DNA of 64,000 bases from Deltaproteobacteria bacterium (lineage in GTDB: Bacteria > Desulfobacterota > Syntrophia > Syntrophales > Smithellaceae): positions 133,079-197,078 of the forward strand of contig JAIGNE010000024.1 of assembly GCA_036528635.1 (NCBI GenBank), given 5' to 3'. The notes under the pieces are model-generated. The model ran no database searches. It saw only the letters and a list, made by a program, of their open reading frames with translations, and was not told the origin of the DNA. The position numbers and the translations under genes are program-made. Positions 1 through 38,158 of the stretch are shown here, piece by piece; within the stretch, counting starts at the first letter, position 1, and each line of letters starts with the position of its first letter.

Positions 1-554
1 AAGTGCATCGTTCCGACTTCAGGCTCCTGGTTGCTACAAACCGTGATTTGCGCAAAGAAGTTCAGGCCGGACGTTTTCGCGAGGACCTTTATTACAGAAT
101 AAACGTCTTTCCGATTCAGGTGCCGCCCCTGCGTGAGCGTAAAGAAGACATTCCCCTTCTGGCGCATCATTTTCTGCGGATCTATGCCGAGAAGTTCAAC
201 AAGGTCGTGGACAGGATCGCCGTGCGGGAAATGGAAAAATTGGTCGCCTACAGCTGGCCTGGTAATGTCAGGGAACTGGAAAATGTCATTGAGCGCGGCG
301 TCATCCTGAGCAAGGGATCGGATTACTGTGTTCCCGAACTGGGACAAATCCTTTTAGATCAAAATACCGCACCTGTCTCTGCCAGCCTGAAAGAAAATGA
401 ACGCAGCCACATTTCGTCCATCCTGAAAATGACCCGCGGAAAGGTCAACGGACCGGGAGGTGCGGCGGAAATTTTAAAAATTCATCCGAACACGCTCCAT
501 TCGCGGATGAAAAAGCTCGGTATTCGGACCCGGAAAACAGACGATATTTCGTAA
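1..554 (+). CDS. sigma-54-dependent transcriptional activator (enhancer-binding protein), C-terminal fragment; the 5' end lies upstream of the window
   Basis: Frame 3 reads LLVATNRDL..FREDLYYRINVFPIQVPPLRERKEDIPLL..WPGNVRELENVIERGV, the C-terminal part of the AAA+ sigma-54 interaction domain. A Fis-type HTH follows (GGAAEILKIHPNTLHSRMKKLGI). Stop codon at 552-554. Confidence 0.9.
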   Translation, partial: VHRSDFRLLVATNRDLRKEVQAGRFREDLYYRINVFPIQVPPLRERKEDIPLLAHHFLRIYAEKFNKVVDRIAVREMEKLVAYSWPGNVRELENVIERGVILSKGSDYCVPELGQILLDQNTAPVSASLKENERSHISSILKMTRGKVNGPGGAAEILKIHPNTLHSRMKKLGIRTRKTDDIS

Positions 555-569
555 TATACGATATTTCGT
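541..569 (+). repeat. two tandem copies (17-bp period) of a 12-bp box ACGATATTTCGT with palindromic arms ACGA/TCGT; candidate activator binding site (UAS)
   Basis: acgatatttcgt occurs at 541-552 and again at 558-569. The first copy overlaps the stop codon of the activator gene. The pair lies about 80-105 bp upstream of the -24 element at 647. Confidence 0.5.
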
Positions 570-646
570 CATAATAACCCCCTCCAAATTCCTTCCCTTT
601 GATTCTATGTATTTAAAATACCACATGATTATTCTTTTATCCTGCC

Positions 647-663
647 TGGTATGAAAAGTGCTT
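647..663 (+). promoter_or_regulatory. sigma-54 (-24/-12) promoter upstream of the GRE gene
   Basis: TGGTATGAAAAGTGCTT has GG at 648-649 and GC at 660-661, the canonical GG-N10-GC spacing of TGGCAC-N5-TTGCW. It sits about 37 nt upstream of the ATG at 700 and directly downstream of an activator gene. Confidence 0.7.
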
Positions 664-699
664 ACTCTGTTCATCAAAATATGATTCGGAGGAAGCTTT

Positions 700-3204
700 A
701 TGATGACAGACAACCCTAACCGCTTATTTTCTATTCAACCTACAACGCGATTCGAGAGGCTTCGGAACCAATACATGGCGTTTTCGAGCCGACCTTTACC
801 TTTATACAGCATCGATGTCGATCGGATTATTACCCGGGTCATGCGGGACACTGAAGGAGAGGCGATGATCCTGCGCCGGGCAAAGTCATTTGCCGCTGTG
901 GTTTCCGAAGTGCCGATCGAAATCTTTCCTGATGAACCGTTTGTGGGATGGATATCCGGAAGGCCTGATGCGACCCTGCTCTGCGCGGAGCAAAAAGGAG
1001 GTTTCCTGGAAAAGGAAGTGGAAGCTATACCTACGATGAGCCCTGAAGACAAGAGGATCGTCCGGGAAGAAATCATCCCATACTGGCGTGGAGACGGCGG
1101 CTACCGCAGGAGTCGAGTCCGCCAGGCCTATGAGAAATACCCCCCTGAATTGCGCAAGCTTCTTTACGAGATCGAAGACCCATCGGGTGAATTGTCCGCA
1201 ACCATCACGAAGATGAGGGTCCCCGGAATTCCGTTCGTAAAAGTCAATGACGCCGCAGAGATCTCGCCCATAGGCGTCATCGGGGAGCTGATGAGCCATC
1301 ATCACATCGGCCACTGCTGCCACGGCTATGAGAAGATTTTGCAGAAAGGTTTTCTGGGAATTAAAGAGGATGCGGAGAAACGGCTGGCGAGGATCGATCC
1401 GTTGAATCCGGAGGATTTGCGAATTCAATCGTTTCTGGAAGCCGTCATCATAGCAATGGATGCGGCAGCCGGGATCGGGCGTCGGTTTGCGGCGTTGGCG
1501 CGGAAAAAAGCCGCTGAAGAAACGAACGCCGAACGGCAGGCGGAACTCAACGAGATCGCAGCGGTCTGTGATCAGGTTCCGGCGCTGCCTGCCCGTACAT
1601 TCCGGGAGGCGATGCAGTCGGTGTGGTTCTCTCACATCTTGCACTGGTGGGAAACACCGCTGTGCAGGGCCGTATCTCCGGGGAGAGTCGATCAATACCT
1701 CTTCCCCTTTTATAAGAACGATCTCGATTCGAATCGGATGTCCGTCGAGAAAGCGCAGGACCTGATCGACTGCTGGCTTTTGCGAATGACGCAGGATGCC
1801 GCTGCGTTTGTGGCGGAAAGCGGCGATGCCCACCACATCGATCTCGGCGGATACAAGGCGGACGGGAGCGATGCCGTCAACGAACTTTCGTATATGTTCC
1901 TCGAGGGAATGATGCATTCGCGGTTGAATGAACCCAATCTCGGCGTTCTTGTTCACGGCAAAACGCCGGACAAATTCCTCATCAAGGCGTGCGAACTGGC
2001 GTCGCTGGGATTCGGCCAGCCGATGTTTTTGAATGCGGACGTTTTCGTCGAGAATATCCTCGCCCGGGGGACCCTGGGCGGACCCCCGGTGCCGCTTGAA
2101 CTGGCGCGCATGAGCTGCGCCATCGGATGCAACGAACCGCACATCACCAATTACGAATCGGAATATCAGACGGGAGGAACCCTTAGGATGCCGGCCGCTC
2201 TTCTGCTGGCTCTGTCCGACGGCTGGAATCCCAACAAGCAGTTGCAATTAGGGCTTAAAACAGGAGATCCGCGGACATTCGCCTCCTTTGAAGAACTTCA
2301 GGAGGCGTTCCGAAAGCAGATGTCCTATCTGGTGAAAATGTGCGCAGTTGCCATTAATATCAATGAACTTATCCTGGCCGATGTCTATCCAACGGCTTAC
2401 CAGTCCGCCCTTATTGAGGATTGCATTGAGAAAGGTATCCCCCGGGAGGAGGGAGGGGCCCGCTTCAACTTCGGTCCCTGCATCGCGACAATCGGTGTGG
2501 TGGATGTGGCCAACTCGCTTGCCGCCATAAAGAAACTCGTTTTTGAAGAAAAAACGGTTTCCATGGATCAGCTCCTTGCCGGTTTGGCCGCGAACTTCAA
2601 AAATGACGACCTGCTCCGGCAAAAACTGCTGGCCGTTCCCAAATTCGGAAACAACGACGATTACGTCGACGACCTCGCCGTCTGGGTCATGAAGATCTTC
2701 TGTGAAGAAGTCGCTTCGCAGAAGAATACGCGGGGCGGTCATATGATGCCTTATCAGAATCCGCTGGGATTATACGTTCCCTATGGATCGCTTACGCCGG
2801 CAATGCCGTCGGGGCGAAAGGTCGGAGAACCTCTTTCCGACGGCATTTCTCCCACCATCGGCAGCGACGTCAGCGGTCCGACGGCGGTGATCCAATCGGT
2901 CGGAAAGATTGATACGATCAGACTTTACCACGGCCAGTCCCTGAATATGCGGCTGGATAGCAGTGTTTTCCGGGAGAAAGCCGGCATCGGCAGGTTTGTT
3001 GCGCTCATCCGGACTTTCCTCGATCAGAAAATCCATCACATTCAGTTAAACCTTGTCTCGAATGAAATTCTGAGAGCAGCGCAGGAAAAACCGGACGATT
3101 ACCGGGATCTGGTCGTCCGGGTTGCCGGGTATTGCGCCTATTTTGTACAACTTCGGAAAAAAGTTCAGGACAGCATTATTGCCCGGACGGTCCATGGAAA
3201 GTGA
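700..3204 (+). CDS. glycyl-radical enzyme, PFL2/glycerol-dehydratase-like family, substrate unknown
   Basis: 834 aa. The C-terminal glycyl-radical motif VVRVAGYCAYFVQL places Gly810 at codon 3127-3129. The putative thiyl Cys477 (2128-2130) lies in AIGCNEPH, with Glu479 two residues later. The N-terminus resembles GRE eliminases (RFERLRNQY..ILRRAKSF..DEPFVGW). A GGAGG Shine-Dalgarno lies 7 nt upstream. Confidence 0.93.
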   Translation: MMTDNPNRLFSIQPTTRFERLRNQYMAFSSRPLPLYSIDVDRIITRVMRDTEGEAMILRRAKSFAAVVSEVPIEIFPDEPFVGWISGRPDATLLCAEQKGGFLEKEVEAIPTMSPEDKRIVREEIIPYWRGDGGYRRSRVRQAYEKYPPELRKLLYEIEDPSGELSATITKMRVPGIPFVKVNDAAEISPIGVIGELMSHHHIGHCCHGYEKILQKGFLGIKEDAEKRLARIDPLNPEDLRIQSFLEAVIIAMDAAAGIGRRFAALARKKAAEETNAERQAELNEIAAVCDQVPALPARTFREAMQSVWFSHILHWWETPLCRAVSPGRVDQYLFPFYKNDLDSNRMSVEKAQDLIDCWLLRMTQDAAAFVAESGDAHHIDLGGYKADGSDAVNELSYMFLEGMMHSRLNEPNLGVLVHGKTPDKFLIKACELASLGFGQPMFLNADVFVENILARGTLGGPPVPLELARMSCAIGCNEPHITNYESEYQTGGTLRMPAALLLALSDGWNPNKQLQLGLKTGDPRTFASFEELQEAFRKQMSYLVKMCAVAININELILADVYPTAYQSALIEDCIEKGIPREEGGARFNFGPCIATIGVVDVANSLAAIKKLVFEEKTVSMDQLLAGLAANFKNDDLLRQKLLAVPKFGNNDDYVDDLAVWVMKIFCEEVASQKNTRGGHMMPYQNPLGLYVPYGSLTPAMPSGRKVGEPLSDGISPTIGSDVSGPTAVIQSVGKIDTIRLYHGQSLNMRLDSSVFREKAGIGRFVALIRTFLDQKIHHIQLNLVSNEILRAAQEKPDDYRDLVVRVAGYCAYFVQLRKKVQDSIIARTVHGK

Positions 3205-4141
3205 GAACGTCATCCATCGGGACAAAATGAACTCCATGCAAGGTCTCGTAGCGAATATTGAACCCTTTGCGATTTACGACGGCCCCGGCATCCGCACCGT
3301 CGTCTTCATGAAGGGGTGTCCTCTGCGGTGCGTGTGGTGCTCTTCGCCGCATACGCAGAATGGGGTCGTGGAGGTCCTGAACGATACGGAGAAATGCAGG
3401 AAATGCGGAACCTGTATCGAGGTCTGCCCGAAGAAAGCCGTGCAAAGGTCGGAAGAAGACGTGATTTGGATTGACCGAAAGCTTTGCGACGGCTGCGGGC
3501 TGTGTGCGGAAAATTGCGCCTATCAGGCATTGGAAATGTCGGGAAAACGTTACACGGTGGATGGGCTCTTCCATGAGATCGAAAAAGACATTCCCTTTTA
3601 CAGGCGTTCCAACGGCGGGGTGACCGTCGGGGGAGGTGAACCTGCCATGCAACCGGATTTTGTCACGGCGTTTCTGAAGCGGTGTCAGGAGCAGCATATC
3701 CATACCGCCATGGAAAGTTGCGGTCTTGCCCCGCAGACGATATGGACGTCGATCATCGATCATCTGGACCTCCTTTATGTCGACATCAAGCAGATGCGGG
3801 AAGATATCCACAAAAAGATAACCGGCGCTTCGAACCGCCAGATTCTGGCCAATGTGCAAACGGCGGCTGAAAGAGTTCCGCTCATTCTTCGCATTCCGGT
3901 CATACCGGGGTTGAACGACGATCAGGACAATTTGGCCCGGACGGCGCAATTTGCCGGAACTTTAGGACGCAACCTGATGCGCATCGAGCTTCTGCCGTTT
4001 CACCATCTGGGGGAAGATCTTTATCGTAAACTCGGCAGAGACTATCCCCTTACAGATGTCCATGCCCCAACGGAGGAGAGGATGTCCGATCTGAAGAAAT
4101 TCATGGAGACCTTCGGCTTGAACGTACAGATCGGAGGCTGA
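3194..4141 (+). CDS. glycyl-radical enzyme activating protein (radical SAM, with two extra ferredoxin-like 4Fe-4S motifs)
   Basis: The radical-SAM cluster motif is CPLRCVWC, preceded by DGPGIRTVVFMKGC. Two further motifs are CRKCGTCIEVCP and CDGCGLCAENC. I chose the ATG at 3194 (MESENV), which overlaps the GRE stop by 11 nt. The track ORF starts at 3122. Confidence 0.92.
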   Translation: MESENVIHRDKMNSMQGLVANIEPFAIYDGPGIRTVVFMKGCPLRCVWCSSPHTQNGVVEVLNDTEKCRKCGTCIEVCPKKAVQRSEEDVIWIDRKLCDGCGLCAENCAYQALEMSGKRYTVDGLFHEIEKDIPFYRRSNGGVTVGGGEPAMQPDFVTAFLKRCQEQHIHTAMESCGLAPQTIWTSIIDHLDLLYVDIKQMREDIHKKITGASNRQILANVQTAAERVPLILRIPVIPGLNDDQDNLARTAQFAGTLGRNLMRIELLPFHHLGEDLYRKLGRDYPLTDVHAPTEERMSDLKKFMETFGLNVQIGG

Positions 4142-4276
4142 AACGATGCCGGGAAAGAGACAAGTGCATCAAGCTCTTTTCCACGGATTTGCCGGTAAAA
4201 CAGACAGGCTGTTCATTTCATGTCATGCCCGACGGTGTTGCGTTCGGCATACAAATAAAGGAGGGAGAGGTTTGGT

Positions 4277-4420
4277 ATGTATCAGTTTAATAGAATGAAG
4301 TCAGTATTGGTGCTGGCGCTTGCCCTGTTTCTCGTTTTCGGCGTTTTACCCGCCACGGCTGCGCCCAAAAAAGAAAAAGCGGAAATAAAAAATGATAAAG
4401 AGAAAGGTGCGGAAGAATAA
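4277..4420 (+). CDS. small secreted Lys/Glu-rich peptide (47 aa), hypothetical; below the ORF-track size cutoff
   Basis: The ATG at 4277 is preceded by AAGGAGGGAGAGG 6 nt upstream. The translation is MYQFNRMKSVLVLALALFLVFGVLPATAAPKKEKAEIKNDKEKGAEE. This gives a signal-peptide-like N-terminus with an A-x-A site and then a charged tail. The TAA stop ends 1 nt before the ligase ATG. Confidence 0.5.
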   Translation: MYQFNRMKSVLVLALALFLVFGVLPATAAPKKEKAEIKNDKEKGAEE

Positions 4421-4421
4421 A

Positions 4422-6140
4422 ATGAATTTGGAAGAATTGAAGAAAGAATTCGAGAACGATGCCCCCCATGTGTTGCTTAAACTCTATGAATGGGCGGTGA
4501 AGCAACCGAATAAGAAATTTCTCTATTACGGAGAAGAGAACCAGTATATTACCTATACAGAATTCAATGAAATCACTAACCGGATTGGCAATTCCTTACG
4601 TTCAATGGGGGTAGTCAAGGGTGACCGCATTTCCCTTCTCCTGTTCAATCCCCTGCTGACTGTGTCGGCAATGTTTGGCATTTGGAAAGCCGGGGCGATC
4701 TTCAGCCCGATCAATTTCAACTACAAAGGCCGATTGCTTTCGCATCAACTCAACGATACGGCGCCCAAATACCTGATTGCCGAGCAAGCGCTTTTCCATC
4801 TTCTCAACGACGTGAAAGACGACGTCGGCGCCCTGAAGGTCATTACAAGGATACCCAAACCTGGCGAGCATGACTACAGAGACGACCTGGCCCATGTGGA
4901 ACTCGATCATAAATATGAACAATTGCCCTACGATGACCTGCTAAAAGGGGATACCGCCGATTTGAATACGGAGATTAATTATTGGGATACGGCAAACATC
5001 ATTTATACGTCCGGAACGACAGGACCGGCGAAGGGCGTTGTTCAGTCTCACCGCTGGATGGCGCAGTATACGCTTAATCTCCGAAGATTATTCCATCCCG
5101 ATGATGTTCTTTACAATGATCTTCCCATGTATCATGTGGGCGGCGCCATCAGCAATTTTGTGCGGGTGGTCTGGGCAGGGGGCGGCATTGCCATGTGGGA
5201 TAAGTTCAGCCCCAAGGAATTCTGGAACAGGATTGAAGCCGGGAGGGCCAATGCTACGACGCTTCTGGATGTGATGGTGCCCTGGCTGATGAATGCGAAG
5301 GAATCCCCGCGGGATCGTTATAATGCACTGAAGATGGTCCATATGCAGCCCCTGCCGCAATATCATAACAAGGTGGCAAAAAGGTTCGGCATTGATTTCA
5401 TCTCGGGCGGTTACGGCCAGACGGAAGCGGGAAACGGCTTTGTCGGGATGTTCGATGAATTGGAGGAAAGTGAGGGCACGCCCAAGGAACTTTACAAAGG
5501 ATATTCGAAAGAGCACATCCGGGAATCGTTGAAGAAGTGGGGGTATCCGCTCTTTTCCGGAAAAGACGAAATTAAAAAGGGCCTGATGGGGCGCTCGGTC
5601 ATCCTGGAGCCGGCCGTTCTCGGCGAACATGATGAAGAATTGGGGCCGGGACAGTACGGGCAACTTTGCTTCCGCAGCCGCGTACCGTACTCAATGTTTG
5701 ATGGTTATTTCAACAAGCCGGAAGCAACGGTCAAAGTCTTCCGGAACCTCTGGTTTCACACGGGAGACGCCTGCTACAAAGATGAGAACGATATTTACTA
5801 TTTTGTCGACAGGATGGGTGGCTTTATCCGGACCAAGGGAGAAAACATCTCTTCCTATCAGATTGAGGACATCATCAACAGCCATTCGGCGGTCCAGATT
5901 TCTGCAGCCCTGCCGATTCCTGCAGAGGACGGGGAGGAAGACGACATCGTCGTGTATGTCGTTCTGAACGAATCGGCGGAACTCTCGGAAGAAAGTCTCA
6001 GAGCCTGGCTTAAGACAGAGATGCCGCGGTTCATGTGGCCCAAGCATGTCCGGTTTATTGATGCATTGCCCAGTACGGCCACCAATAAGATCGAAAAATA
6101 CAAGCTGAAGCAAATGATCCTCTCCGAGTTAAAGAAGTAA
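4422..6140 (+). CDS. AMP-dependent synthetase/ligase (acyl- or aryl-CoA ligase family)
   Basis: The AMP-binding signature IIYTSGTTGPAKGV is present, along with GYGQTE and the C-terminal FHTGD..GRxxD-like and ..TATNKIEKYKL motifs. I chose the start MNLEEL at 4422. The track ORF starts at 4392. Confidence 0.88.
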   Translation: MNLEELKKEFENDAPHVLLKLYEWAVKQPNKKFLYYGEENQYITYTEFNEITNRIGNSLRSMGVVKGDRISLLLFNPLLTVSAMFGIWKAGAIFSPINFNYKGRLLSHQLNDTAPKYLIAEQALFHLLNDVKDDVGALKVITRIPKPGEHDYRDDLAHVELDHKYEQLPYDDLLKGDTADLNTEINYWDTANIIYTSGTTGPAKGVVQSHRWMAQYTLNLRRLFHPDDVLYNDLPMYHVGGAISNFVRVVWAGGGIAMWDKFSPKEFWNRIEAGRANATTLLDVMVPWLMNAKESPRDRYNALKMVHMQPLPQYHNKVAKRFGIDFISGGYGQTEAGNGFVGMFDELEESEGTPKELYKGYSKEHIRESLKKWGYPLFSGKDEIKKGLMGRSVILEPAVLGEHDEELGPGQYGQLCFRSRVPYSMFDGYFNKPEATVKVFRNLWFHTGDACYKDENDIYYFVDRMGGFIRTKGENISSYQIEDIINSHSAVQISAALPIPAEDGEEDDIVVYVVLNESAELSEESLRAWLKTEMPRFMWPKHVRFIDALPSTATNKIEKYKLKQMILSELKK

Positions 6141-6256
6141 CGAAGGAAAACGGAGTTAGCCCTTGATGGATCAGAATCTTGATCACTGCAAGGGTAAGAA
6201 CAGTTGGGGAGAGTAAGTTCGTACAGAAACAAAAATAAGAAAGGATAAAGAAAGAA

Positions 6257-7765
6257 ATGAAAAAGAACTTTAGGATTTTGACGTTTTTTGTAGCGGTGTT
6301 TTTTATTTTGTCGATCGTGGCTATTTGTCCATCGACTCCCTTTGCCGCCAAGCCGGCAAAAACCGAAAAGACGGTTAAGGCGGATAAGGCGGATAAGGCA
6401 GTCAAAGGATCTATGGCTGACAAATTTCCTAAGCCCGCCGCGGCTTATGATGTCACCAAAATGGGGGATATGTCGGACTTTGATCCGGCCACTTATGTTC
6501 CGCCAAAAGGCGACACGATTAAAATTGCTTATCTCAATTCGTTCTCCGGACCGGGCGCGATCAACGGCCAGATCCATCTGGCGCCCATTATTTTCGCCGC
6601 GCACGATATCAATAAGCGCGGGGGCATAATGGTCGACGGTAAAAGAAAACTGATCGAGGTGATTGCAGCGGACACCATGACCAAGGCGGATCAGACAAAG
6701 AAGATCTGTGAACGGCTGGTTTTGCAGGATAAGGTTCATGTTCTGATGGGGACGTCGGGAAGCCATCTGATGAAAATCATCAATGAAGTTGCCAATAAGT
6801 ACAAAGTGATTGCCTTGAATGAAAGCTCTTTATCGGTCGATCTTATGGATGCCACAAATTTCAACCGTTACTCTTTCATGGCCTCTCCCGGTTCGGATCA
6901 GCTCGGGCGCTCAATGGCTTATTACTATGGGCAGATCCGGAAGAAGGAAAAGAAGTTTTACATCATCTGTCAGGACTATTTATTCGGCCATGACATGGCG
7001 GATGGATTTAAGAAGGGGCTGAAAGAATACTACCCGGAAGCGCAAGTCGTGGGTGAAGATTATCACAAGCTTTTCCTGACGGACTTTGCTCCATACTTGG
7101 AAAAGATTAAAGCCTCCGGCGCCGAGGTCATTTACACGGGCGACTGGGTTCCCGATTCCAGTACCCTTTTGAAACAGGCCAGACAAATGGGAATTAAGTT
7201 GCCCTTCGCCCAGGCATTTATGAGCGAGCCCAATTCTCTCCAGGAGGTTGGCGTTGAAGGGACTAGAGGCCTTGTCCACATCGATCTCTATGATATGCCC
7301 GTGCCTTTTAAATTCTATCCCCCTTACATTAAATTTTACAAGGCATGGAACGATCAGTGGAAAAAATGGAAGACCCTTCCCTACAATAGTCCTTTGTTTG
7401 AACATGGTACTTCTGTCATCGGCCTTTACGGACAGCATGCCTACTGGCTTTTCAGTGTCATCGAAAGGGCGGGAAGCACGGATCCGGAAAAAATTATCAA
7501 GGTTTGGGAAGGGGACACCTATCGCTATGCCAACGGGTCGATTGTGAAGATGAGAGCCTGCGATCATAGAGCCATCCAGGACTTTTCCATCACGGAATAT
7601 GTGCCGCCCGAACAGCAGAAAGTGTCCATGACCATTCCCCCCTATTATTGGCACAAAGGGTCTTCTTTTAACGGACCAGCCTGGTTGATTCCGGCTGAAA
7701 AAGTCCTCCCGGGAATGGATCAGAAATTAAATCGATGTGCCGGCAAGAACGATTGGGGTGAATAA
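6257..7765 (+). CDS. periplasmic substrate-binding protein, LIV (type I) family, unusually long (502 aa), with no adjacent permease or ATPase
   Basis: A signal peptide (MKKNFRILTFFVAVFFILSIVAICPSTPFA) is followed by a Lys/Ala-rich linker (AKPAKTEKTVKADKADKAVKG). The body is LIV-like (IKIAYLNSFSGPGA..AAHDINKRGGI..). Confidence 0.8.
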   Translation: MKKNFRILTFFVAVFFILSIVAICPSTPFAAKPAKTEKTVKADKADKAVKGSMADKFPKPAAAYDVTKMGDMSDFDPATYVPPKGDTIKIAYLNSFSGPGAINGQIHLAPIIFAAHDINKRGGIMVDGKRKLIEVIAADTMTKADQTKKICERLVLQDKVHVLMGTSGSHLMKIINEVANKYKVIALNESSLSVDLMDATNFNRYSFMASPGSDQLGRSMAYYYGQIRKKEKKFYIICQDYLFGHDMADGFKKGLKEYYPEAQVVGEDYHKLFLTDFAPYLEKIKASGAEVIYTGDWVPDSSTLLKQARQMGIKLPFAQAFMSEPNSLQEVGVEGTRGLVHIDLYDMPVPFKFYPPYIKFYKAWNDQWKKWKTLPYNSPLFEHGTSVIGLYGQHAYWLFSVIERAGSTDPEKIIKVWEGDTYRYANGSIVKMRACDHRAIQDFSITEYVPPEQQKVSMTIPPYYWHKGSSFNGPAWLIPAEKVLPGMDQKLNRCAGKNDWGE

Positions 7766-7770
7766 ATAAA

Positions 7771-7845
7771 TGATCTGACGTGCTGTGCGGGGAGGATGGT
7801 CCGCGTTCATGCTCCCCGTGCAGCCAACCGACTCCGGTCAGATCA
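7771..7845. terminator. long hairpin between convergent genes (possible bidirectional terminator)
   Basis: The inner 13-bp stem pairs gctgtgcggggag (7782-7794) with ctccccgtgcagc (7812-7824), including 2 G-T wobbles. The outer arms are tgatctgac (7771-7779) and gtcagatca (7837-7845). There is no clear U-tract. Confidence 0.45.
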
Positions 7846-8277
7846 TTCGACAACGGTAATGTGATCGCCGACGGTGATTACGCCCTCGGACAAAACGCGG
7901 ACAAAAATGCCCTCCTTCGGCATGACACAATCACCGACGGCATGATAGATCGCGCAAGGCGCCAGGCATGTTTTGCCAATTTGGGTGATTTCCAGAAGGA
8001 TATCGTTGCCGATCCTGATTTTTGTACCGACGGGGAGGGTATAGAGTTCGATGCCTTGTGTGGTCAAATTTTCGGCAAAATCGCCATACTGGACATTCAG
8101 ACCTTTTTGCCGGATTTTTTCCACGCTTTCAGCGGCGAGCAGGCTGACCTGACGGATGGCCATGCCGATATGGGCGTCATGTTCCAGACCCTGGTTGACC
8201 AGAGCGCGCGCCGCTCCGACATTGTGTTTCTTTTCACCTTTATGGTCACTGATGTTGACGGACAGAATTTTTCCCAT
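7843..8277 (-). CDS. MOSC domain-containing protein
   Basis: 144 aa. The sequence MGKILSVNISDHKGEKK..GDFAENLTTQGIEL..IGKTCLAPCAIYH is typical of small stand-alone MOSC proteins. Confidence 0.8.
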   Translation of the reverse strand: MGKILSVNISDHKGEKKHNVGAARALVNQGLEHDAHIGMAIRQVSLLAAESVEKIRQKGLNVQYGDFAENLTTQGIELYTLPVGTKIRIGNDILLEITQIGKTCLAPCAIYHAVGDCVMPKEGIFVRVLSEGVITVGDHITVVE

Positions 8278-8282
8278 GATCG

Positions 8283-8660
8283 TTACATCCTTATGGCGAT
8301 GGCTTCTATTTCCAGCGGTGCGCCCTTGGGTAAAGCGGATACTTCCACTGTGGAACGTGCAGGCGGTTCTACGGGGAAAAAACCCGCGTAAACTTCATTC
8401 ACGGCGGCAAAGTCGCTGATGCTTTTTAAAAAAATGGTTGTCTTGACAATGTTATTCAGAGACAAACCGTTTTCTTCGAGCACGCTTTGGAGATTGGTCA
8501 AAATTTGACGCGTCGCCAGCCGGATATCCATGATGACTTCACCCGATTGCGGATCGATGGGCAGCTGCCCGGATATAAAAATAAAACCGCCCCCTTCTAC
8601 AGCCAGGGAATAGGGCCCTGCGACGGGCAGTTTGTTTGAAGTCATAATTTTCTTTTCCAT
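8283..8660 (-). CDS. ridA: RidA/YjgF/UK114 family enamine/imine deaminase
   Basis: 125 aa. It contains PVAGPYSLAVEGGGFIFISGQLPIDP..ARSTVEVSALPKGAPLEIEAIA. A GGGAG Shine-Dalgarno lies upstream. Confidence 0.85.
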   Translation of the reverse strand: MEKKIMTSNKLPVAGPYSLAVEGGGFIFISGQLPIDPQSGEVIMDIRLATRQILTNLQSVLEENGLSLNNIVKTTIFLKSISDFAAVNEVYAGFFPVEPPARSTVEVSALPKGAPLEIEAIAIRM

Positions 8661-11376: not shown

Positions 11377-11384
11377 TAATTCAC

Positions 11385-11843
11385 TTAAGATCCTTTTTTG
11401 ATCTGTCTGACTTTGGGCCGGGTAATTCCTTTTTTACCTTCCTGACCGGTGACCAGGCGGGCAAGATTCACGCCGCCCATCGCCTCCCGGATGGTGTGAC
11501 TGAGCTCTGTCCAGGTATCCCTTGCGGTGCAGGCCTCTGCTCTCGGACAGACGTCCGGATTCTTCACGCAGTTGACAAGATCGATTTTTCCTTCCACCGC
11601 TTCCACGATATCGCACAGGGAAATATCCTGCGGTTCTCTGGCCAGCACATAACCTCCGCGCGCGCCACGGATGGATCGAATCAGTCCGGCAGCTCTCAAG
11701 GGGATGACAATCAAACTCAGGTATTTCCCGGAGATGTCTTCGCTGGCAGCGATATCCTTAAGAAAAACGGACTTATCCCGGCCTGCTGCAGCCAGAGCGA
11801 TCATCAGCCTGACGCCGTATCGTGATCGGGTTGATAATTTCAT
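11385..11843 (-). CDS. Rrf2 family transcriptional regulator
   Basis: MKLSTRSRYGVRLMIALA.. is the winged-helix Rrf2 N-terminus. The C-terminal Cys residues (C..C.....C in NCVKNPDVCPRAEAC) are compatible with an Fe-S ligand set. I chose the start at Met22 of the track ORF. Confidence 0.85.
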   Translation of the reverse strand: MKLSTRSRYGVRLMIALAAAGRDKSVFLKDIAASEDISGKYLSLIVIPLRAAGLIRSIRGARGGYVLAREPQDISLCDIVEAVEGKIDLVNCVKNPDVCPRAEACTARDTWTELSHTIREAMGGVNLARLVTGQEGKKGITRPKVRQIKKGS

Positions 11844-12018
11844 AACGAGTTGTTTCCTTAAATACCTTTCGCGCCTGATAGAGCAGTCTTTAAAAATAAA
11901 GCTCAAACACTATTTTATTGCTAGTAATTAAAGCAGAAATCAAAATTTGTCAAGAACAATGCCGGTTGGGCAATTAAGTGATCAGTGGTTGTTCATTAAA
12001 GAATATCCGGATGACCGC

Positions 12019-12573
12019 TTATTGGCTTCGGACAACCTGGCTGATATGCCTGGCAATCTGTATTCCCAGTTGGGAGGACTGATCGGTGGAGGACACAGCC
12101 GGTTGATCGGTAAGAGAAATATTTTTTTCATGGATTGTTTTGCCGGTTGAGGCATCAATTAATCGGACCATCGCCGTCATTTTCGCCAGGCCGGCTTTTG
12201 CTTTGTCGCGGTCGAGCCGCGGCTCACGAACGAATGCGAGGCGGACCTTCACAATAATCGTATCTGCCTCCTGCAGCGAGGATGAAGCGGTTTTTACAAT
12301 CATCGGAATCGAACCGATTCTCAAGAGTTCATGAAAGGCTGTGTTTTCACAGAGGGCGGCAGCGTCGGGATATTTTCTGCTCAAATTTTCATCAGCGAGA
12401 AAATGGTGGATCACTGCCTTGCGATAGATGCTTTCCTTCAAAAGGGCTTCGCGCGGCGTCTGTTCCCGATCCATCGCGACGGTTTTTTTGCCGCCGCCCG
12501 AAACACAAGAAAGCAGGCAGATGCCGATCCATAAGAACAATAAATGGGAAATCACTTTTTGTTTTTTCAACAT
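12019..12573 (-). CDS. hypothetical lipoprotein
   Basis: A signal peptide with a lipobox-like LLSC follows MLKKQKVISHLLFLWIGIC. I recognise no family. The start is uncertain (12594 or 12573). Confidence 0.55.
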   Translation of the reverse strand: MLKKQKVISHLLFLWIGICLLSCVSGGGKKTVAMDREQTPREALLKESIYRKAVIHHFLADENLSRKYPDAAALCENTAFHELLRIGSIPMIVKTASSSLQEADTIIVKVRLAFVREPRLDRDKAKAGLAKMTAMVRLIDASTGKTIHEKNISLTDQPAVSSTDQSSQLGIQIARHISQVVRSQ

Positions 12574-12797
12574 GGTTGCTCTGCATGGAATCATGATTTG
12601 TATTTGCGAAGAACTATAACATTATTTTAAATAAACGAAAGCCAATTTATCCGGTTCGGGCCTGGTCAGTGAATGGTTGTCCGCGATGCACTTCCTCACT
12701 CAAAGCATTCATTCGGCAATGCGTTACGGGCGCGTTATGGGTTGCTTTTCAAATCGTAAATTGTTATCATAACTCAGAATTCAATGGAGAAGGACGA

Positions 12798-13652
12798 TTG
12801 AACGATTTGAAAAAAATGGTCGTACTCTTATTATTATTCCTGTTGATTCTTCCAGCCCATGTTTTGGCCGCCGGAAAACACATGAAACCGCTCGCGGTCA
12901 AAGCGGCGATCCTTGTGGAAATGAATACCGGCCAAGTGCTTTATCGGCAGAATGCCGACCGGATCATCCAACCGGCCTCGCTGTCCAAAATCATGTCGCT
13001 TTATATCATTGCCGAAGACATTGAAAACAAGAAAGCCTTGTACACGGATCTCGTTACCGTCAGTGACAATGCCGCTCGGACGGGCGGGTCCAAGATGCTC
13101 TTTGAACCGGGAGAAAAATTTGAAGTGTTCGATCTGGTGAAGGGGATGGCCATCCATTCCGCCAATGACGCCTCGGTGGCGCTGGCCGAGCATTTTGGCG
13201 GAAGCGAGGACCAGTTTGTCCTGCGGATGAATGCCAAGGCCCGTGAGCTGGGCATGAAGCATACGCGCTTCATCAATCCTCACGGTTTGCCGAATCGAAA
13301 ACAAAAAACAACCGCGTGGGATATCTACATCCTGTCACGGGAATATCTGCGGCGGTTTCCCAATTTGCAAAAAATTCATTCCATCGAGCGTTTCACCTTT
13401 AATGATGTCGTTTGGATCAATCGCAATGATCTTTTAAGCAACTATCCCGGAGCGGACGGCCTGAAGACCGGCTATGTCGGTGCGGCCGGTTTTCATCTGG
13501 TCGCAACCGCCAGGCGGGGCGATGCAAAATTAATGGCTGTGGTTTTAGGAGCTAAAAACCGGCGCATTCGGTCCCGGCAGACCAGGAAGTTGCTGGACTA
13601 TGGATTTGGCTTGACCGGTCAAAGGATGGCCGCCAGTCGAATCGGCGGATAG
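12798..13652 (+). CDS. serine-type D-Ala-D-Ala carboxypeptidase (peptidase S11, PBP5/6-like)
   Basis: The three active-site motifs are present: SxxK (ASLSKIM), SxN (HSANDAS) and KTG (LKTGYV). A signal peptide (KKMVVLLLLFLLILPAHVLA) is present. The start is either TTG 12798 (GGAG upstream) or ATG 12816. The track start at 12669 is unlikely. Confidence 0.88.
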   Translation: MNDLKKMVVLLLLFLLILPAHVLAAGKHMKPLAVKAAILVEMNTGQVLYRQNADRIIQPASLSKIMSLYIIAEDIENKKALYTDLVTVSDNAARTGGSKMLFEPGEKFEVFDLVKGMAIHSANDASVALAEHFGGSEDQFVLRMNAKARELGMKHTRFINPHGLPNRKQKTTAWDIYILSREYLRRFPNLQKIHSIERFTFNDVVWINRNDLLSNYPGADGLKTGYVGAAGFHLVATARRGDAKLMAVVLGAKNRRIRSRQTRKLLDYGFGLTGQRMAASRIGG

Positions 13653-17042: not shown

Positions 17043-17750
17043 TCAAATCCCCAGATAAGCTTTTTTCACATTTTCATCATGCAGCAAATCCGAGGCTTTT
17101 CCTTCCATTGCGATCATACCGTTTTCCACGACATAGGCGCGGCTGGCTAGTTTCAGCGCCATGAAGGCGTTTTGCTCCACCAGGAAAATCGTGGTGTGGT
17201 GTTCAGTGTTGATCCGGGCGAGGATCGAGAAAATGAGCTTGGTCATCAGGGGGGAGAGCCCCAGAGACGGTTCATCCAGCAGGAGGAGCTTCGGTTTGGC
17301 CATCAGCGCGCGCGAAATGGCCAGCATCTGCTGCTCGCCGCCGCTTAAGGTGCCGCCCTGCTGATGGCGGCGCTGATGCAGGATGGGGAAAAGTTCGTAG
17401 ATATAGGCCAGGTCTGTTTTAATCTCTTCACGATCGTCGCGCAGGAATGCGCCCATTTCCAGATTTTCCAGAACGCTCAGTTTGGCGAAGATGCGCCGGC
17501 CTTCGGGAACCTGGCAGATGCCCATTGCTACGATTTTGTCGGGATCGGTTTTTTCAATCGGTTTGCCGCTGAAAAGTATTTGTCCGCTTCGGACCGGCGT
17601 GATGCCCGAGATGGACATGAGCGTCGTGGATTTTCCGGCGCCGTTGGATCCGATGAGCGCAACGATTTCGCCCGGAGCGACGGATAGGGAAATGCCTTTG
17701 AGGGCGCGGATGCTGCCGTAGCAGGTTTCCACATCAATCAGCTTCAGCAT
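17043..17750 (-). CDS. livF: branched-chain amino acid ABC transporter ATP-binding protein
   Basis: Walker A GSNGAGKST, signature LSGGEQQML and Walker B LLLLDEPS. 235 aa. Confidence 0.9.
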   Translation of the reverse strand: MLKLIDVETCYGSIRALKGISLSVAPGEIVALIGSNGAGKSTTLMSISGITPVRSGQILFSGKPIEKTDPDKIVAMGICQVPEGRRIFAKLSVLENLEMGAFLRDDREEIKTDLAYIYELFPILHQRRHQQGGTLSGGEQQMLAISRALMAKPKLLLLDEPSLGLSPLMTKLIFSILARINTEHHTTIFLVEQNAFMALKLASRAYVVENGMIAMEGKASDLLHDENVKKAYLGI

Positions 17751-18531
17751 CGGCTTCCACCCCCAGGTAGGCCTTGATGACTGTCGGATTGCTGCGGATT
17801 TCCTGCGGGGTTCCCCGCGCGATTTCCTCGCCGTAATCCAGAACGAAAATATTCTGTGACAGATTCATGACCAGTTTCATGTCATGTTCAATGAGCAGAA
17901 TCGAGAGATCGAAATCATTGCGCAGCCGGGCAATCAGCGCATCGAGCTCATTGGTTTCCTGAGGATTCATCCCGGCAGCCGGTTCGTCCAGCAGAAGCAG
18001 ACAGGGGTCTGTGGCCAGGGCCCGCGCGATTTCCAGACGGCGCTGCGCGCCATAGGGCAGCTCCCTGGCCAGTTCGTTTACAGCAGAGCTGAGCCCCATG
18101 TATTCCAGAAGGGTATAGCTCTTGTCCAGAATGGCTTTCTCCTCATCCCTCGTCCTTTGGGGACGGAAAATCGCGCCCAAAATGCCTGAGTTAGACCGGC
18201 TGTGACGGCCGATCATCACATTTTCCAAAACGGTCATGCCTTCGAAAAGACGGATGTTCTGGAATGTGCGCGCCACCCCCAGTTTGGTAATGGCATTGAT
18301 TTTCAATCCCTCGATCCGCGACGGTTTGCCCTGCGGCGGCGACAGCGTAATCTGGGCCGCAGTTGGTTTGTAGATGCCGGTCAGGCAATTGAAGAGCGTC
18401 GTTTTCCCCGCGCCGTTGGGACCGATCAGCGCTGTAATTTCTCCTTTACGGACATGAAGACTGACATTATCCAGCGCCCGCAGACCTCCGAAACACATGG
18501 TCAGATTTTTTACATCCAGAATATTATCCAT
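17734..18531 (-). CDS. livG: branched-chain amino acid ABC transporter ATP-binding protein
   Basis: Walker A GPNGAGKTT, a signature-like LPYGAQRRLEIARAL, Walker B LLLLDEPAAG and a C-terminal BCAA-type extension. It overlaps livF by 17 nt. Confidence 0.9.
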   Translation of the reverse strand: MDNILDVKNLTMCFGGLRALDNVSLHVRKGEITALIGPNGAGKTTLFNCLTGIYKPTAAQITLSPPQGKPSRIEGLKINAITKLGVARTFQNIRLFEGMTVLENVMIGRHSRSNSGILGAIFRPQRTRDEEKAILDKSYTLLEYMGLSSAVNELARELPYGAQRRLEIARALATDPCLLLLDEPAAGMNPQETNELDALIARLRNDFDLSILLIEHDMKLVMNLSQNIFVLDYGEEIARGTPQEIRSNPTVIKAYLGVEADAEAD

Positions 18532-18544
18532 ACGTCACGCTTTC

Positions 18545-19756
18545 CTAGGTTTTATCTTCGGCGCTTGTCTGTTGAAATTTATATTGCCTGCGGCGGTTAG
18601 CCATCAGTCCGCCGGGGCGGAAAATCATCATGAGCATCAGCGCCGCGCCAAAGAGGATCATCCGGTAGTCGCTGAAGATGCGCAGGTATTCCGGCAAGAG
18701 AATGATGGCCAGCGCCGCGATGATGACTCCGATGATGGAACCCATGCCGCCCAGAACCACAATCGCTAAAATCATGGCCGATTCCAGAAAAGTAAAACTG
18801 GCCGGATTGATAAAAGTAGTTTTTGCGGCAAAGAGAACGCCCGCCATGCCCGCCCAGGTTGCGCCCAGCGCGAAAGCCGCCAGCTTGGCTTTGGTCTTGT
18901 CGATCCCCATTGCCTGACAGGCCAGTTCATCTTCGCGAAGAGCCACCCACGCGCGGCCGATGCGGGAGTGCTGCAGGCGGTGGATCACGAAAACGGTCAG
19001 CGCGCACAGGGCAATTAGCAGGAAGTACATGTAAATTGCGGATTGCTCGGGGCTGAGGGAAATGCCGAAAAATCCCGGCCGCGGAATATTGGAGATCCCG
19101 CTCGGCCCGAAAGAAAAATCATTCCAGTTTTCCAGCACCAGCCGGAGAATTTCCGCGAAAGCCAGCGTGACAATCGCCAGATAATCACCGCGCAGGCGGA
19201 GAACGGGCAACCCGACCAGGATGCCAAAAAAGGCCGCAAGCAGCGCACCAACCGGCAGCAGCGTCCAGAAGCCCAGGCCGAAGTGATAGTTGAGCAGGGC
19301 ATAGCTGTATGCGCCCACGGCGTAAAAGGCGACATAGCCCAGATCCAGAAGACCGGCCAGACCGACTTCAATATTCAGGCCCAGCCCCAGCATGACATAA
19401 ATGAGCGCCGTGGTCATGACGTTTACCTGGTAGTGGGAAAAGACAAAGGGGAAGGTCAAAGCGAAGAGGCAGGCTATGACCAGGGTGGAACGCTGAATAT
19501 TCTGATTTTCCAGGAGGCGTCTGAACGCAGACGTCCGTTCGGGTGCAAGTTTCCGCGCAGACGTTTTCCGGCGAAGGTATACCTGCCAGAGGAAAGAGAG
19601 GACAAAGCTGCCGACGCCGACGCCGATGATGCTGGCCCAGCGCCAGACCACTATATTTTCAATGGTGTTGACTTTGATCACCATGATCGGAAACGTGAGA
19701 AGAATAAACCACAGGGCAATGTACGTTGATCGTTTGAGTTCGTCAGAGAATTTCAA
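18545..19756 (-). CDS. livM: branched-chain amino acid ABC transporter permease
   Basis: 403 aa polytopic membrane protein. The order H-M-G-F is typical of liv operons. Confidence 0.85.
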   Translation of the reverse strand: MKFSDELKRSTYIALWFILLTFPIMVIKVNTIENIVVWRWASIIGVGVGSFVLSFLWQVYLRRKTSARKLAPERTSAFRRLLENQNIQRSTLVIACLFALTFPFVFSHYQVNVMTTALIYVMLGLGLNIEVGLAGLLDLGYVAFYAVGAYSYALLNYHFGLGFWTLLPVGALLAAFFGILVGLPVLRLRGDYLAIVTLAFAEILRLVLENWNDFSFGPSGISNIPRPGFFGISLSPEQSAIYMYFLLIALCALTVFVIHRLQHSRIGRAWVALREDELACQAMGIDKTKAKLAAFALGATWAGMAGVLFAAKTTFINPASFTFLESAMILAIVVLGGMGSIIGVIIAALAIILLPEYLRIFSDYRMILFGAALMLMMIFRPGGLMANRRRQYKFQQTSAEDKT

Positions 19757-19767
19757 TGGATTTCCTC

Positions 19768-20670
19768 CTAGACTTTCTGCTGGGAGGAGCGTCCCAGTAT
19801 GCCGTCGGGCTTGAAGATTAGAATCAGGATCAGGAGGGCAAACGCAAAGACGGATTCGTAGTCGCTGGAGATGTAGCCGGTGCCGAAACTTTCGGCCAGC
19901 CCCAGAACCAGACCGCCCAGCATGGCGCCGGGAATGCTGCCGATGCCGCCCAGAACCGCAGCGGTAAAGGCCTTGATGCCGGCGTTAAAACCGATGTAAA
20001 AATTGATCCGGCCGACATGGGAGGCAATCAAAATGCCCCCCACGGCCGCGAGTGCCGAGCCGATGATGAATGTCCTGGAGATGACGCGGTTGACATTGAC
20101 ACCGGTGAGCATGGCCATTTCCTGATCCTGCGCCGTGGCCCGCATGGCCCGGCCCATTTTGGTGAACTTTAAAAGCAGCGACAGGGCGATCATGACGACG
20201 GCGGAGGTCACGATGATGATGAAATCGGAAGGGCCGATCCACGTGCTGATGCTGTCGAGAAAATCCGATTGCGGAAGAAGATTGGGGAAGGGGAGGAAGT
20301 CGGAGGTCTGGGCCAGCATGACGAAATTCTGCAAAAAGATGGACATGCCGATGGCGCTGATGAGCGGCGACAGCCGGGGGGCTTTGCGCAGGGGTTTGTA
20401 AGCGATCTTTTCGACGGTGAATCCGTAAGCCGAGGCGTAGACAATGGCGATGGCGCCGGCAAGAATCAATACCGACAGGCCGGTGAAGCCCTGCATGGTC
20501 AGGATGGAGGCTGTGATCAGCGCGGTAAACGCACCGATCATATAAATCTCGCCGTGGGCAAAGTTGATGAGCTGCAGGATGCCGTAAACCATGGTGTAGC
20601 CCAGAGCGATGAGCGCGTAAATGCTGCCGCGCGTGAGTCCTCCCAAAAATAAGTCCCAGAAAAAATTCAT
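19768..20670 (-). CDS. livH: branched-chain amino acid ABC transporter permease
   Basis: 300 aa polytopic protein with GSIYALIALGYTMVYGIL..NFAHGE, typical of LivH. Confidence 0.88.
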   Translation of the reverse strand: MNFFWDLFLGGLTRGSIYALIALGYTMVYGILQLINFAHGEIYMIGAFTALITASILTMQGFTGLSVLILAGAIAIVYASAYGFTVEKIAYKPLRKAPRLSPLISAIGMSIFLQNFVMLAQTSDFLPFPNLLPQSDFLDSISTWIGPSDFIIIVTSAVVMIALSLLLKFTKMGRAMRATAQDQEMAMLTGVNVNRVISRTFIIGSALAAVGGILIASHVGRINFYIGFNAGIKAFTAAVLGGIGSIPGAMLGGLVLGLAESFGTGYISSDYESVFAFALLILILIFKPDGILGRSSQQKV

Positions 20671-20772
20671 CGTCTTCCGTCGGGTCCGGAATGGTTTTTT
20701 GCACCGGCGAATAACCGGAACACCTGAAGGTTACGCGATGTCACGCGCGCCTGCGCAAACCGTTCCCATGAT

Positions 20773-38142: not shown

Positions 38143-38158
38143 TGGCATAAGGATTGCT
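38143..38158 (+). promoter_or_regulatory. sigma-54 promoter of the che operon
   Basis: TGGCATAAGGATTGCT is a near-perfect match to TGGCAC-N5-TTGCW. It lies 113 nt upstream of the cheR ATG and faces away from the NtrC-type activator gene. Confidence 0.75.

Follow-up and report, generated by a model that had tools for sequence, protein, structure and literature searches.

A predicted sigma-54-controlled operon of a Smithellaceae bacterium joining a dehydratase-like glycyl-radical enzyme to a CoA ligase and a LIV-type binding protein

Glycyl-radical enzyme (GRE) eliminases have repeatedly exposed unsuspected anaerobic pathways, among them those of choline (to trimethylamine, TMA), hydroxyproline, isethionate and anhydro-sugars. 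The described enzymes that resemble the one treated here most closely in structure are glycerol dehydratase (GD), propanediol dehydratase (PD) and HypD. According to a June 2026 review of all characterised GREs, His164 of GD is the acid that protonates the leaving hydroxyl; no GRE in that review is set beside an AMP-forming CoA ligase or acts on an acyl-CoA. His160 of HypD is essential by mutagenesis. In the sulfoacetate pathway (SauCD-SauS-TauF-IseG), an ADP-forming CoA ligase followed by two reductases leads to the GRE IseG. In the C-S lyase GREs the sulfonate is anchored by two Arg and Gln (2026 review). Whole clades of GREs, environmental and archaeal ones especially, are without an assigned function (2026 review). 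The GRE locus described here lies at the beginning of a stretch of 64,000 nucleotides of a Deltaproteobacteria bacterium of the family Smithellaceae (assembly GCA_036528635.1, contig JAIGNE010000024.1, positions 133,079 to 197,078); this full 64 kb stretch is referred to below as the window, and the relative loci compared with it carry L-numbers (L001, L104 and so on).

The forward-strand operon at 700-7765 of the window encodes an oxygen-sensitive GRE, its activating radical SAM enzyme, an AMP-forming acyl-CoA ligase and a LIV-type solute-binding protein, and is preceded by a gene for an enhancer-binding protein (EBP) and a -24/-12 promoter motif. With moderate confidence, the locus is read as an inducible catabolic operon in which the dehydratase-like GRE, the ligase and the binding protein act together on an organic acid that is broken down as a CoA thioester. 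Each of the features listed in a sequence-only reading of the window was recovered in its place by an open reading frame (ORF) scan and by Pfam and NCBIfam searches.

The GRE gene (700-3204) codes for 834 amino acids and its product has the PFL-like barrel domain and the C-terminal Gly-radical domain with an RVxG motif that define the superfamily (PF02901, 1.1e-168; PF01228, 3.9e-27), with an activase gene close by. The true start is probably the second ATG, at 703, which is the start used in L001. The motif AIGCNEP begins at residue 474, which places Cys477, Asn478 and Glu479, and RVAGYCAYF begins at residue 807, which places Gly810. The protein scored below every curated NCBIfam equivalog cut-off (HypD, HpsG/HpfG, CutC, IAD, HPAD, PFL and YbiW/PflD). 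Its best scores were those of the eliminase models HypD (523 bits, cut-off 1100), HpsG (521 bits, cut-off 1000) and CutC (486 bits, cut-off 1050), above IAD (367 bits, cut-off 1100), HPAD (295 bits, cut-off 1150) and PFL (TIGR01255, 127 bits, cut-off 994), and the PFL2-3 subfamily model gave 561 bits (cut-off 678). The closest solved GRE structures are about 30-32% identical, the best sequence matches being CutC, GD and HypD; together with the failure to reach any equivalog cut-off and the absence of such an enzyme from the June 2026 review, this upholds the earlier view of the GRE as uncharacterised. An AlphaFold2 model built with 47 relatives in the alignment has a pLDDT of 90.8, and Foldseek searches with it returned GD, PD and HypD on top (TM-score 0.89, 32% identity). 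A PFL-type formate-lyase (PFL, TdcE) was rejected on account of the single Cys in the loop, where PFL has Cys418-Cys419, and of the TIGR01255 score of 127 against 994.

Residues were mapped by HMMER alignments and manual residue counting, the mapping being uncertain in the 364-381 loop. IGCNEP pairs with IGCVEP of GD (1r8w, Cys433/Glu435), and the same loop is matched in HypD (Cys434-Val-Glu436) and CutC. Because the alignments to all three enzymes agree, Cys477 and Glu479 are placed on the thiyl loop, a placement that had been named beforehand as a point on which the first reading could fail. His205 aligns with both GD His164 and HypD His160. The substrate contacts of GD are not kept, His281, Ser282 and Asp447 being replaced by Arg323, Ala324 and Thr491, and a clade insertion of about 40 residues (residues ~133-200), of lower pLDDT, is missing from GD and HypD. 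The eliminase class is favoured because of the Cys-x-Glu pair, His205, the eliminase scores in NCBIfam and the dehydratase matches in Foldseek, and the GRE is accordingly read as a variant within the known eliminase-like class.

The same comparisons bear on two other types of radical chemistry. A Kolbe-type or HAT-type (hydrogen-atom-transfer) decarboxylase like HPAD, IAD or PAD, acting on an acid delivered by the binding protein, would be compatible with the Cys-x-Glu of HPAD, and loci L101-L103 hold subunits of MmdA-like (de)carboxylases in the place taken here by the GRE and activase, which hints at analogous roles. It is nevertheless a very unlikely reading, given that the IAD and HPAD scores (367 and 295 bits) fall behind those of the eliminases (521-523 bits), that HPAD ranked 50th in Foldseek with 21% identity, that the locus holds no gene for an HPAD-type small subunit, that His205 matches the dehydratases, and that a hydrocarbon-like product would not require a CoA ligase.

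Scarcely credible is an enzyme like the X-succinate synthases, adding a hydrocarbon to fumarate so that the ligase activates the succinate adduct for beta-oxidation. The setting of ligase, acyl-CoA dehydrogenase, hydratase and thiolase seen in some relative loci does resemble the ass/mas and bss/bbs clusters, and an alkylsuccinate synthase function has been proposed for related PFL2-type GREs of archaea (2026 review). However, BSS and MASS are the most distant of the PFL2-type structures (279-293 bits; Foldseek ranks 45-48, 26-27% identity), the eliminase residues Glu479 and His205 are conserved, and a periplasmic binding protein for polar solutes misfits a hydrocarbon substrate. There are also no small-subunit genes: no ORF lies between the promoter and the GRE gene or between the GRE and activase genes, and the sole small ORF is the stump of a binding-protein gene (see below). 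By plain offset from Cys477, the position matching BSS Arg508 is Gly492, an offset that would shift with any indel. Full-text literature searches returned no paper on this GRE clade; the papers on the benzene 'Magic' cluster do not involve this GRE, and the limonene enzyme is a BSS-type succinate synthase and not relevant to it.

A search of 5.8 billion proteins found one relative at 90% identity and a family at 44-61%, whose members belong to Desulfatitalea tepidiphila, Desulfomonile tiedjei, Syntrophales, Dehalococcoidia and Loki-/Promethearchaeota and carry generic annotations only. His205, Cys477, Ser487 and Gly810 are invariant in the 47 aligned clade members, and Glu479 is present in 46 of them. 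Asn478 occurs in 39 of the 47, and a sister clade has Tyr there. Among the mapped pocket positions, 206-208, 321-323, 490-495 and 690-695 vary within the clade: the polar set His200, Cys322, Arg323, Gln490 and Thr491 is common to the GREs of the window, L001 and L104, the other members being hydrophobic there. The picture is of an invariant catalytic core with apparently diversifying specificity. As the middle Asn is a clade hallmark while the substrate-lining positions vary, it says little by itself about the chemistry; the general-base position noted in the sequence-only reading is indeed kept as Glu479, and the altered middle residue is on present evidence no clue to the mechanism.

Members of the Cys-Tyr-Glu sister clade, 44-45% identical to the window GRE, stand in tandem with Cys-Asn-Glu members in L006 (7538-12511), L049 (4476-9543), L087 (7519-12502) and L092 (10001-16652), and the paired GREs come after one single activase in L006, L049 and L087. 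Such pairs suggest a system of two enzymes or two radical steps in succession. Larger clusters are found in L089 (3863-22397), L086 (3884-17111) and L085 (1-12493), some with four to five GRE paralogues (L086, L089), with one to three ligases and a GntR/FCD regulator; the GREs of ~700 amino acids in L085 and L086 have the loop Cys-Cys-Asn-Glu, that is, the PFL-type double Cys plus Glu. In L105 (12577-15012), a second GRE adjoining the clade member is split into pieces of 268 and 513 amino acids and is probably a pseudogene or the result of an assembly frameshift. In the Lokiarchaeon locus L087 (15372-22502), three GRE genes and an activase gene lie beside genes for a diphosphomevalonate decarboxylase-like protein, HMG-CoA reductase, HMG-CoA synthase and squalene/phytoene synthase, a proximity that may be coincidental.

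The activase gene (3194-4141) shares 11 nt with the GRE gene and codes for a GRE-activating radical SAM enzyme of 315 amino acids (TIGR02494, 322 bits, cut-off 174). The motif CPLRCVWC begins at residue 42, CRKCGTCIEVC at residue 68 and CDGCGLCAENC at residue 98, the last two being of the CX2CX2CX3C type, so that the overlap, the CxxxCxxC motif and the two ferredoxin-type clusters described earlier all agree with the profile match and the motif positions. Over residues 1-315 it shares 90% identity with the activase of L104.

Upstream of the GRE gene, the window opens within an EBP gene, of which the C-terminal part is present (3-554, forward strand, 183 amino acids; Pfam Sigma54_activat, AAA_lid_14 and HTH_8), the gene start lying outside the window. 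The identity of this fragment to the EBPs of L001 and L104 is 88% and 95%, respectively, and the full-length orthologues have 1060-1070 amino acids with GAF sensor domains. The -24/-12 element TGGTATGAAAAGTGCT at 647-662 has the GG-N10-GC spacing right for a sigma-54 promoter and is kept in L001 as TGGCATGAAACGTGCA; a motif search of the 64 kb window found six sites of the GG-N10-GC type against 0.79 expected. The window, L001, L004, L049 and L092 each have an EBP gene as well as a -24/-12 motif ahead of the leading gene of the operon. The Pfam domains, the spacing and the conservation in L001 thus agree with the EBP gene and promoter first noticed before the GRE gene, the promoter spanning 647-662. 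Two copies of the repeat ACGATATTTCG(T), at 541 and 558 (541-569, forward strand), lie 17 bp apart and 78-106 bp upstream of the -24 element; ACGATATTTCG occurs nowhere else in the window, and L001 keeps the pair at the identical 17-bp spacing (GATAT[T/A]TCG at 9840 and 9857). The pair is a candidate upstream activator site, to which the EBP is predicted to bind. At the level of motifs, a GG-N10-GC element and a cognate AAA+ EBP gene are both present, as in a sigma-54-dependent operon, and the operon is predicted to be sigma-54-controlled.

Five more -24/-12 motifs occur in the window, at 38143, 47984 (reverse strand), 48192, 53687 and 63464, together with two EBP genes of the response-regulator type (36442-37833, reverse strand; 52270-53676, forward strand). 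Since these lie within the same 64 kb, sigma-54 control appears to be common in this genome.

The ligase gene (4422-6140, forward strand, the ORF being open from 4392) codes for 572 amino acids with the Pfam domains AMP-binding and AMP-binding_C. Its start, like the activase start at 3194, matches the gene calls of L104. The protein falls below all NCBIfam equivalog cut-offs and has no close relative in the PDB. The labels 'carnitine-CoA ligase' (JGI) and CaiC-like that are attached to its subfamily are automatic annotations, and the score against the CaiC model NF005947 is 219 bits against a cut-off of 651. Those labels and the set of ligase, dehydrogenase, hydratase and thiolase prompted consideration of a carnitine/gamma-butyrobetaine TMA-lyase, which was set aside: CutC Thr502 and Tyr506 are replaced by Gln490 and Thr494, the binding protein is LIV-type and not betaine-type, and the CaiC score is far below its cut-off. 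The position that we take to be Asp216 of CutC is His in the window GRE, which was also counted against a TMA-lyase.

Neighbourhoods of clade members were gathered by exact-protein look-ups, one genome scan and one metagenome scan (12 loci), and were compared, with the same flanks, with 52 control loci of other GRE families, at 32-40% identity, among the matches listed from the genome scan with generic GRE peptides. An AMP-forming ligase gene lies within 10 kb of the clade GRE, mostly adjacent or one gene off, in L001, L002, L004, L006, L049, L085, L086, L088, L089 and L104. This amounts to about half of the clade loci, in eight independent lineages, against one of the 52 control loci among the matches listed (Fisher p ~1e-5, or ~1e-4 after related loci were collapsed); the estimate is conservative, as L104 was omitted from the count. 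The GRE-adjacent ligases fall into four subfamilies that share at most about 30% identity: subfamily A (window, L001, L049, L004 and the 572-aa ligase of L104), the FadD/PimA-like subfamily B (551-aa ligase of L104, L006, L085 and L086), subfamily C (L002) and subfamily D (L088). Orthologues of the window ligase adjoin clade GREs in L104 (95% identity), L001 (82%), L049 (60%) and L004 (51%). The set of EBP, GRE, activase, ligase and binding protein is kept in L001 and L104 at 80-95% protein identity. Because it recurs in independent lineages, the link with a ligase, a sigma-54 activator and a LIV-type binding protein is no local accident, and the pairing first noticed in the window has found its counterpart across genomes.

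In L004 (Desulfomonile) and L088, the genes for the GRE, the activase and the ligase are interleaved with those for a FadE5-like acyl-CoA dehydrogenase, an enoyl-CoA hydratase/3-hydroxyacyl-CoA dehydrogenase and a thiolase (FadE5/FadB/FadA-type), and L086 has genes for a thiolase and a DUF35 protein. These beta-oxidation genes in L004 and L088 and the thiolase gene in L086 support the predicted catabolic direction. Members of the wider family at 53% identity or less have no ligase gene nearby, their neighbours being thiamine pyrophosphate enzymes with short-chain dehydrogenases/reductases, class III aminotransferases, and MttB with amine oxidases, so that function is probably not uniform across the family.

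The interleaved loci also bring in another order of events, to which a low, though not negligible, probability is given: the ligase would act first and the GRE would work on the CoA thioester, for example converting a 3,4-dihydroxy- or 4-alkoxy-3-hydroxyacyl-CoA to a 3-oxoacyl-CoA and so removing a blocking substituent within beta-oxidation. With a similarly low probability, clade GREs in general would strip from acyl-CoA thioesters those vicinal oxygen (or ether- or halogen-derived) substituents that block the dehydrogenase and thiolase steps. Besides the interleaving in L004 and L088, this reading can draw on the recruitment of four ligase subfamilies beside the clade, on the ~40-residue insertion, which could reshape the substrate entrance, and on hydrolases of the haloalkane-dehalogenase/epoxide-hydrolase type near the L049 ligase, which could yield vicinal diols or alcohols. 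It is set against the June 2026 review, which contains no GRE acting on a CoA ester, and against the polar pocket with Arg323 in the window enzyme, which fits a free carboxylate at least equally well. The L049 hydrolases are two alpha/beta hydrolases of the haloalkane-dehalogenase family encoded directly after the ligase (11378-13578), one scoring 303 bits against an NCBIfam subfamily cut-off of 265, and hint at halogenated or epoxide-derived substrates.

The preferred reading of an operon for organic acid catabolism has itself several points against it. For every member of the clade, 1,2-elimination is a prediction, and the Cys-x-Glu pair is no proof of it, because GRE isomerases and HPAD carry the motif too. 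The window itself has no beta-oxidation genes, and the pocket positions Arg323, Gln490 and Thr491 of its GRE are hydrophobic in the members embedded among beta-oxidation genes, so that the substrates of the two may differ. About half of the clade loci (L005, L007, L011, L087, L092 and L105) have no ligase nearby. Ligase orthologues of 73-75% identity in Syntrophales adjoin genes for MmdA-like carboxyltransferases, GRE genes being absent within 10 kb. Finally, the gene order differs among the window, L001 and L104, and co-transcription of the ligase and binding-protein genes with the GRE gene is presumed.

The last three of these points would equally suit a chance adjacency, in which the ligase and binding protein are accidental neighbours or serve a separate pathway, the GRE and activase being self-contained, with a diol, an amino alcohol or another small non-acid molecule as substrate. 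The binding protein belongs to a very large and highly paralogous family, as such a view would expect, and amid the shuffling of gene order a ligase and a binding protein were lost from the window and the GRE was retained. This is judged unlikely in view of the occurrence of ligases by clade GREs in the eight lineages against a single control locus, the independent recruitment of distinct ligase subfamilies and the conservation of the five-gene set in L001 and L104; in addition, a sequence scan found no terminator-like site above chance expectation and no separate promoter between the operon genes. The chance-adjacency, decarboxylase and fumarate-adding alternatives are each less well supported than the catabolic operon.

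A further ligase orthologue, 54% identical, is found in Neobacillus, again beside MmdA-like carboxyltransferases and with no GRE gene within 10 kb. Because such orthologues occur in loci without an adjacent GRE gene, the ligase family is not dedicated to GRE pathways. The initial suggestion that a carboxylate is captured by the binding protein and funnelled into CoA metabolism therefore gains from the recurrent ligase link and loses some of its force through the subfamily A orthologues that have no adjacent GRE gene. The carboxyltransferase loci that hold a subfamily A orthologue also hold a B-like ligase and a binding protein. The module without GRE (L101 3368-16491, L102 4974-11731, L103 1152-11731) consists of a ligase of ~550 amino acids, a binding protein or transporter, at least one MmdA-like carboxyltransferase and the window-ligase orthologue of ~575 amino acids, the module taking the place held by the GRE and activase in window-type loci; in Neobacillus it adds a 73-aa biotinyl protein, with no biotin carboxylase gene nearby. 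L101 has a GRE-activase-like gene, and its contig encodes a clade GRE (L012) at a distance of ~25 kb. At 7163-8741 of L101, which is from a Syntrophales genome, the island of ligase and carboxyltransferase genes contains inserted genes for a group II intron reverse transcriptase and a Y1 transposase.

The solute-binding protein gene (6257-7765, forward strand) codes for 502 amino acids with a signal peptide, a Lys/Ala-rich linker and the Peripla_BP_6 fold (PF13458, 3.3e-48); the specific LIV and urea models of NCBIfam scored far below their cut-offs. Orthologues are found in L104 (93% identity), L001 (80%), L049 (48-52%) and L092 (46%). The operon holds no permease or ATPase gene for this protein, in keeping with its earlier description as an orphan. 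That description is weakened by the L049 orthologue, which sits inside a complete LIV-type ABC operon, and by a complete LIV-type ABC transporter encoded 9 kb away in the window (17043-21900, reverse strand), with ATPases at 17043-17750 and 17734-18531, permeases at 18545-19756 and 19768-20670, and a Peripla_BP_6 protein at 20773-21900. This transporter could serve the binding protein of the operon, there being no direct link between the two.

The ~100 nt before the binding-protein gene (6150-6256) are conserved in L001 (13452-13545) and travel with the gene despite the differing gene order, L104 having the 3' half only. Neither an RNA family nor a consensus structure could be assigned to this leader, and an Rfam scan of 1-8500 returned nothing real. 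Past 7765 the genes are convergent and code for MOSC, RidA, MetW, an alpha/beta hydrolase (read as MetX-like), NadA and Rrf2. As these appear unrelated, the unit is taken to end at 7765.

The history of the operon is seen best in L104, a 238-kb metagenome contig found via the binding protein and 92% identical in DNA to window 1-7823. Its gene order is EBP, GRE (94% identity), activase, a 482-aa binding protein, a 551-aa ligase, the 572-aa ligase and a 499-aa binding protein. Window 1-4386 corresponds to L104 627-5011 and window 4392-7823 to L104 8186-11558, so that the window is short of 3.2 kb, with the junction at about 4386-4392. A small ORF of 47 amino acids (4277-4420, forward strand) precedes the ligase gene. 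Its first ~36 codons match the start of the 482-aa binding protein of L104 (MYQFNRMKSV..AAPKKEKAEI against MHQFNRIKSV..AAPKKVKAEM) and are followed by an out-of-context tail; tblastn with this ORF found no homologue in the loci compared before L104, L001 included. The alignment identifies the ORF as the 5' stump of a second LIV-type binding-protein gene, not a gene in its own right. The deletion took a second ligase of the 551-aa type as well, so that the ancestral locus had two ligases and two binding proteins. A deletion stump accounts for the signal peptide, the strong ribosome-binding site and the absence from L001. The small signal-peptide ORF reported at first is thus present, with a good Shine-Dalgarno sequence, as a remnant.

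The catabolic operon may be pictured as follows, the reaction type being one that we infer beside the observed gene content, motifs, promoter motif and conserved synteny. The GAF-domain EBP would sense an effector and activate the sigma-54 promoter at 647-662. A hydroxylated organic acid would be captured by the LIV-type binding protein, and this acid or its CoA ester would be the substrate of the GRE. The radical SAM activase would place the radical on Gly810, from which in turnover it would move to Cys477, and the thiyl would abstract hydrogen from the carbinol carbon of the substrate. Glu479 would take the hydroxyl proton and His205 would protonate the leaving group (OH or OR, most probably) on the adjacent carbon, the net outcome being a 1,2-elimination to a carbonyl (oxo) compound. 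Before or after this radical step, the AMP-forming ligase would make the CoA thioester, which would then enter thiolytic or beta-oxidative breakdown.

The clade is widespread in anoxic sediments and digesters, has expanded into multi-paralogue clusters and is present in Asgard archaea; unlike the other GRE families sampled, it shows a link to CoA activation, extended in some genomes to beta-oxidation. A substrate assignment would bring one more reaction into the anaerobic carbon cycle. Were the substrate a CoA ester, the enzyme would be the first such GRE and would widen the known GRE chemistry, and oxygenated lipids or ether compounds would have a novel anaerobic pathway in sediment Desulfobacterota, Syntrophales, Dehalococcoidia and Asgard archaea. 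Since many GRE clades lack an assignment, the enzyme is a worthwhile target and no categorical surprise, and the window and L104 together offer a compact, well-defined gene set for expression.

Among the known systems, the PFL2-type GRE of Archaeoglobus fulgidus (2f3o), whose function is debated, is likewise uncharacterised and belongs to an anaerobe able to oxidise alkanes and fatty acids. At 391 bits and 31% identity to the window GRE it lies outside the clade, whose members share at least 44-60% identity. The B12-independent GD of C. butyricum (1r8w) and PD (5i2g, 9rco) share with the window GRE the fold (TM-score 0.89), the Gly-radical motif, the Cys-x-Glu pair, the His at the position of GD His164 and an activase with two extra ferredoxin-type clusters. 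Unlike them, the window GRE, at ~32% identity, has Asn and not Val as the middle residue and an extra N-terminal insertion of ~40 residues, and its locus has a CoA ligase, a binding protein and a sigma-54 regulator in place of microcompartment or aldehyde dehydrogenase genes.

HypD (6vxc) is the top match in NCBIfam, and the equivalents of its His160 and Glu436 are kept; its substrate is a carboxylate-bearing alcohol, as is likely for the window GRE. However, the score of 523 bits is well below the cut-off of 1100, and Asp278 and Thr645 are replaced by Arg323 and Leu689. In our own reading of the alignment, uncertain in the 364-381 loop, Phe340 becomes Ala377, Tyr450 becomes Thr494 and Ser334 corresponds to Ser374. 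With Asp278, Phe340, Tyr450 and Thr645 replaced, the proline-binding set of HypD is mostly absent.

The sulfoacetate pathway resembles the proposed one in being a GRE eliminase pathway of a sulfate/sulfite reducer, in which a carboxylate is first made into a CoA ester and a periplasmic binding protein takes part. It differs in that the window ligase is AMP-forming and that no reductase genes are found at the locus. The earlier statement that a CoA ligase context is foreign to characterised GREs holds for AMP-forming ligases, as far as the June 2026 review goes, and gives way at the ADP-forming ligase upstream of IseG, the sulfoacetate pathway being the closest earlier example of a GRE pathway with CoA activation.

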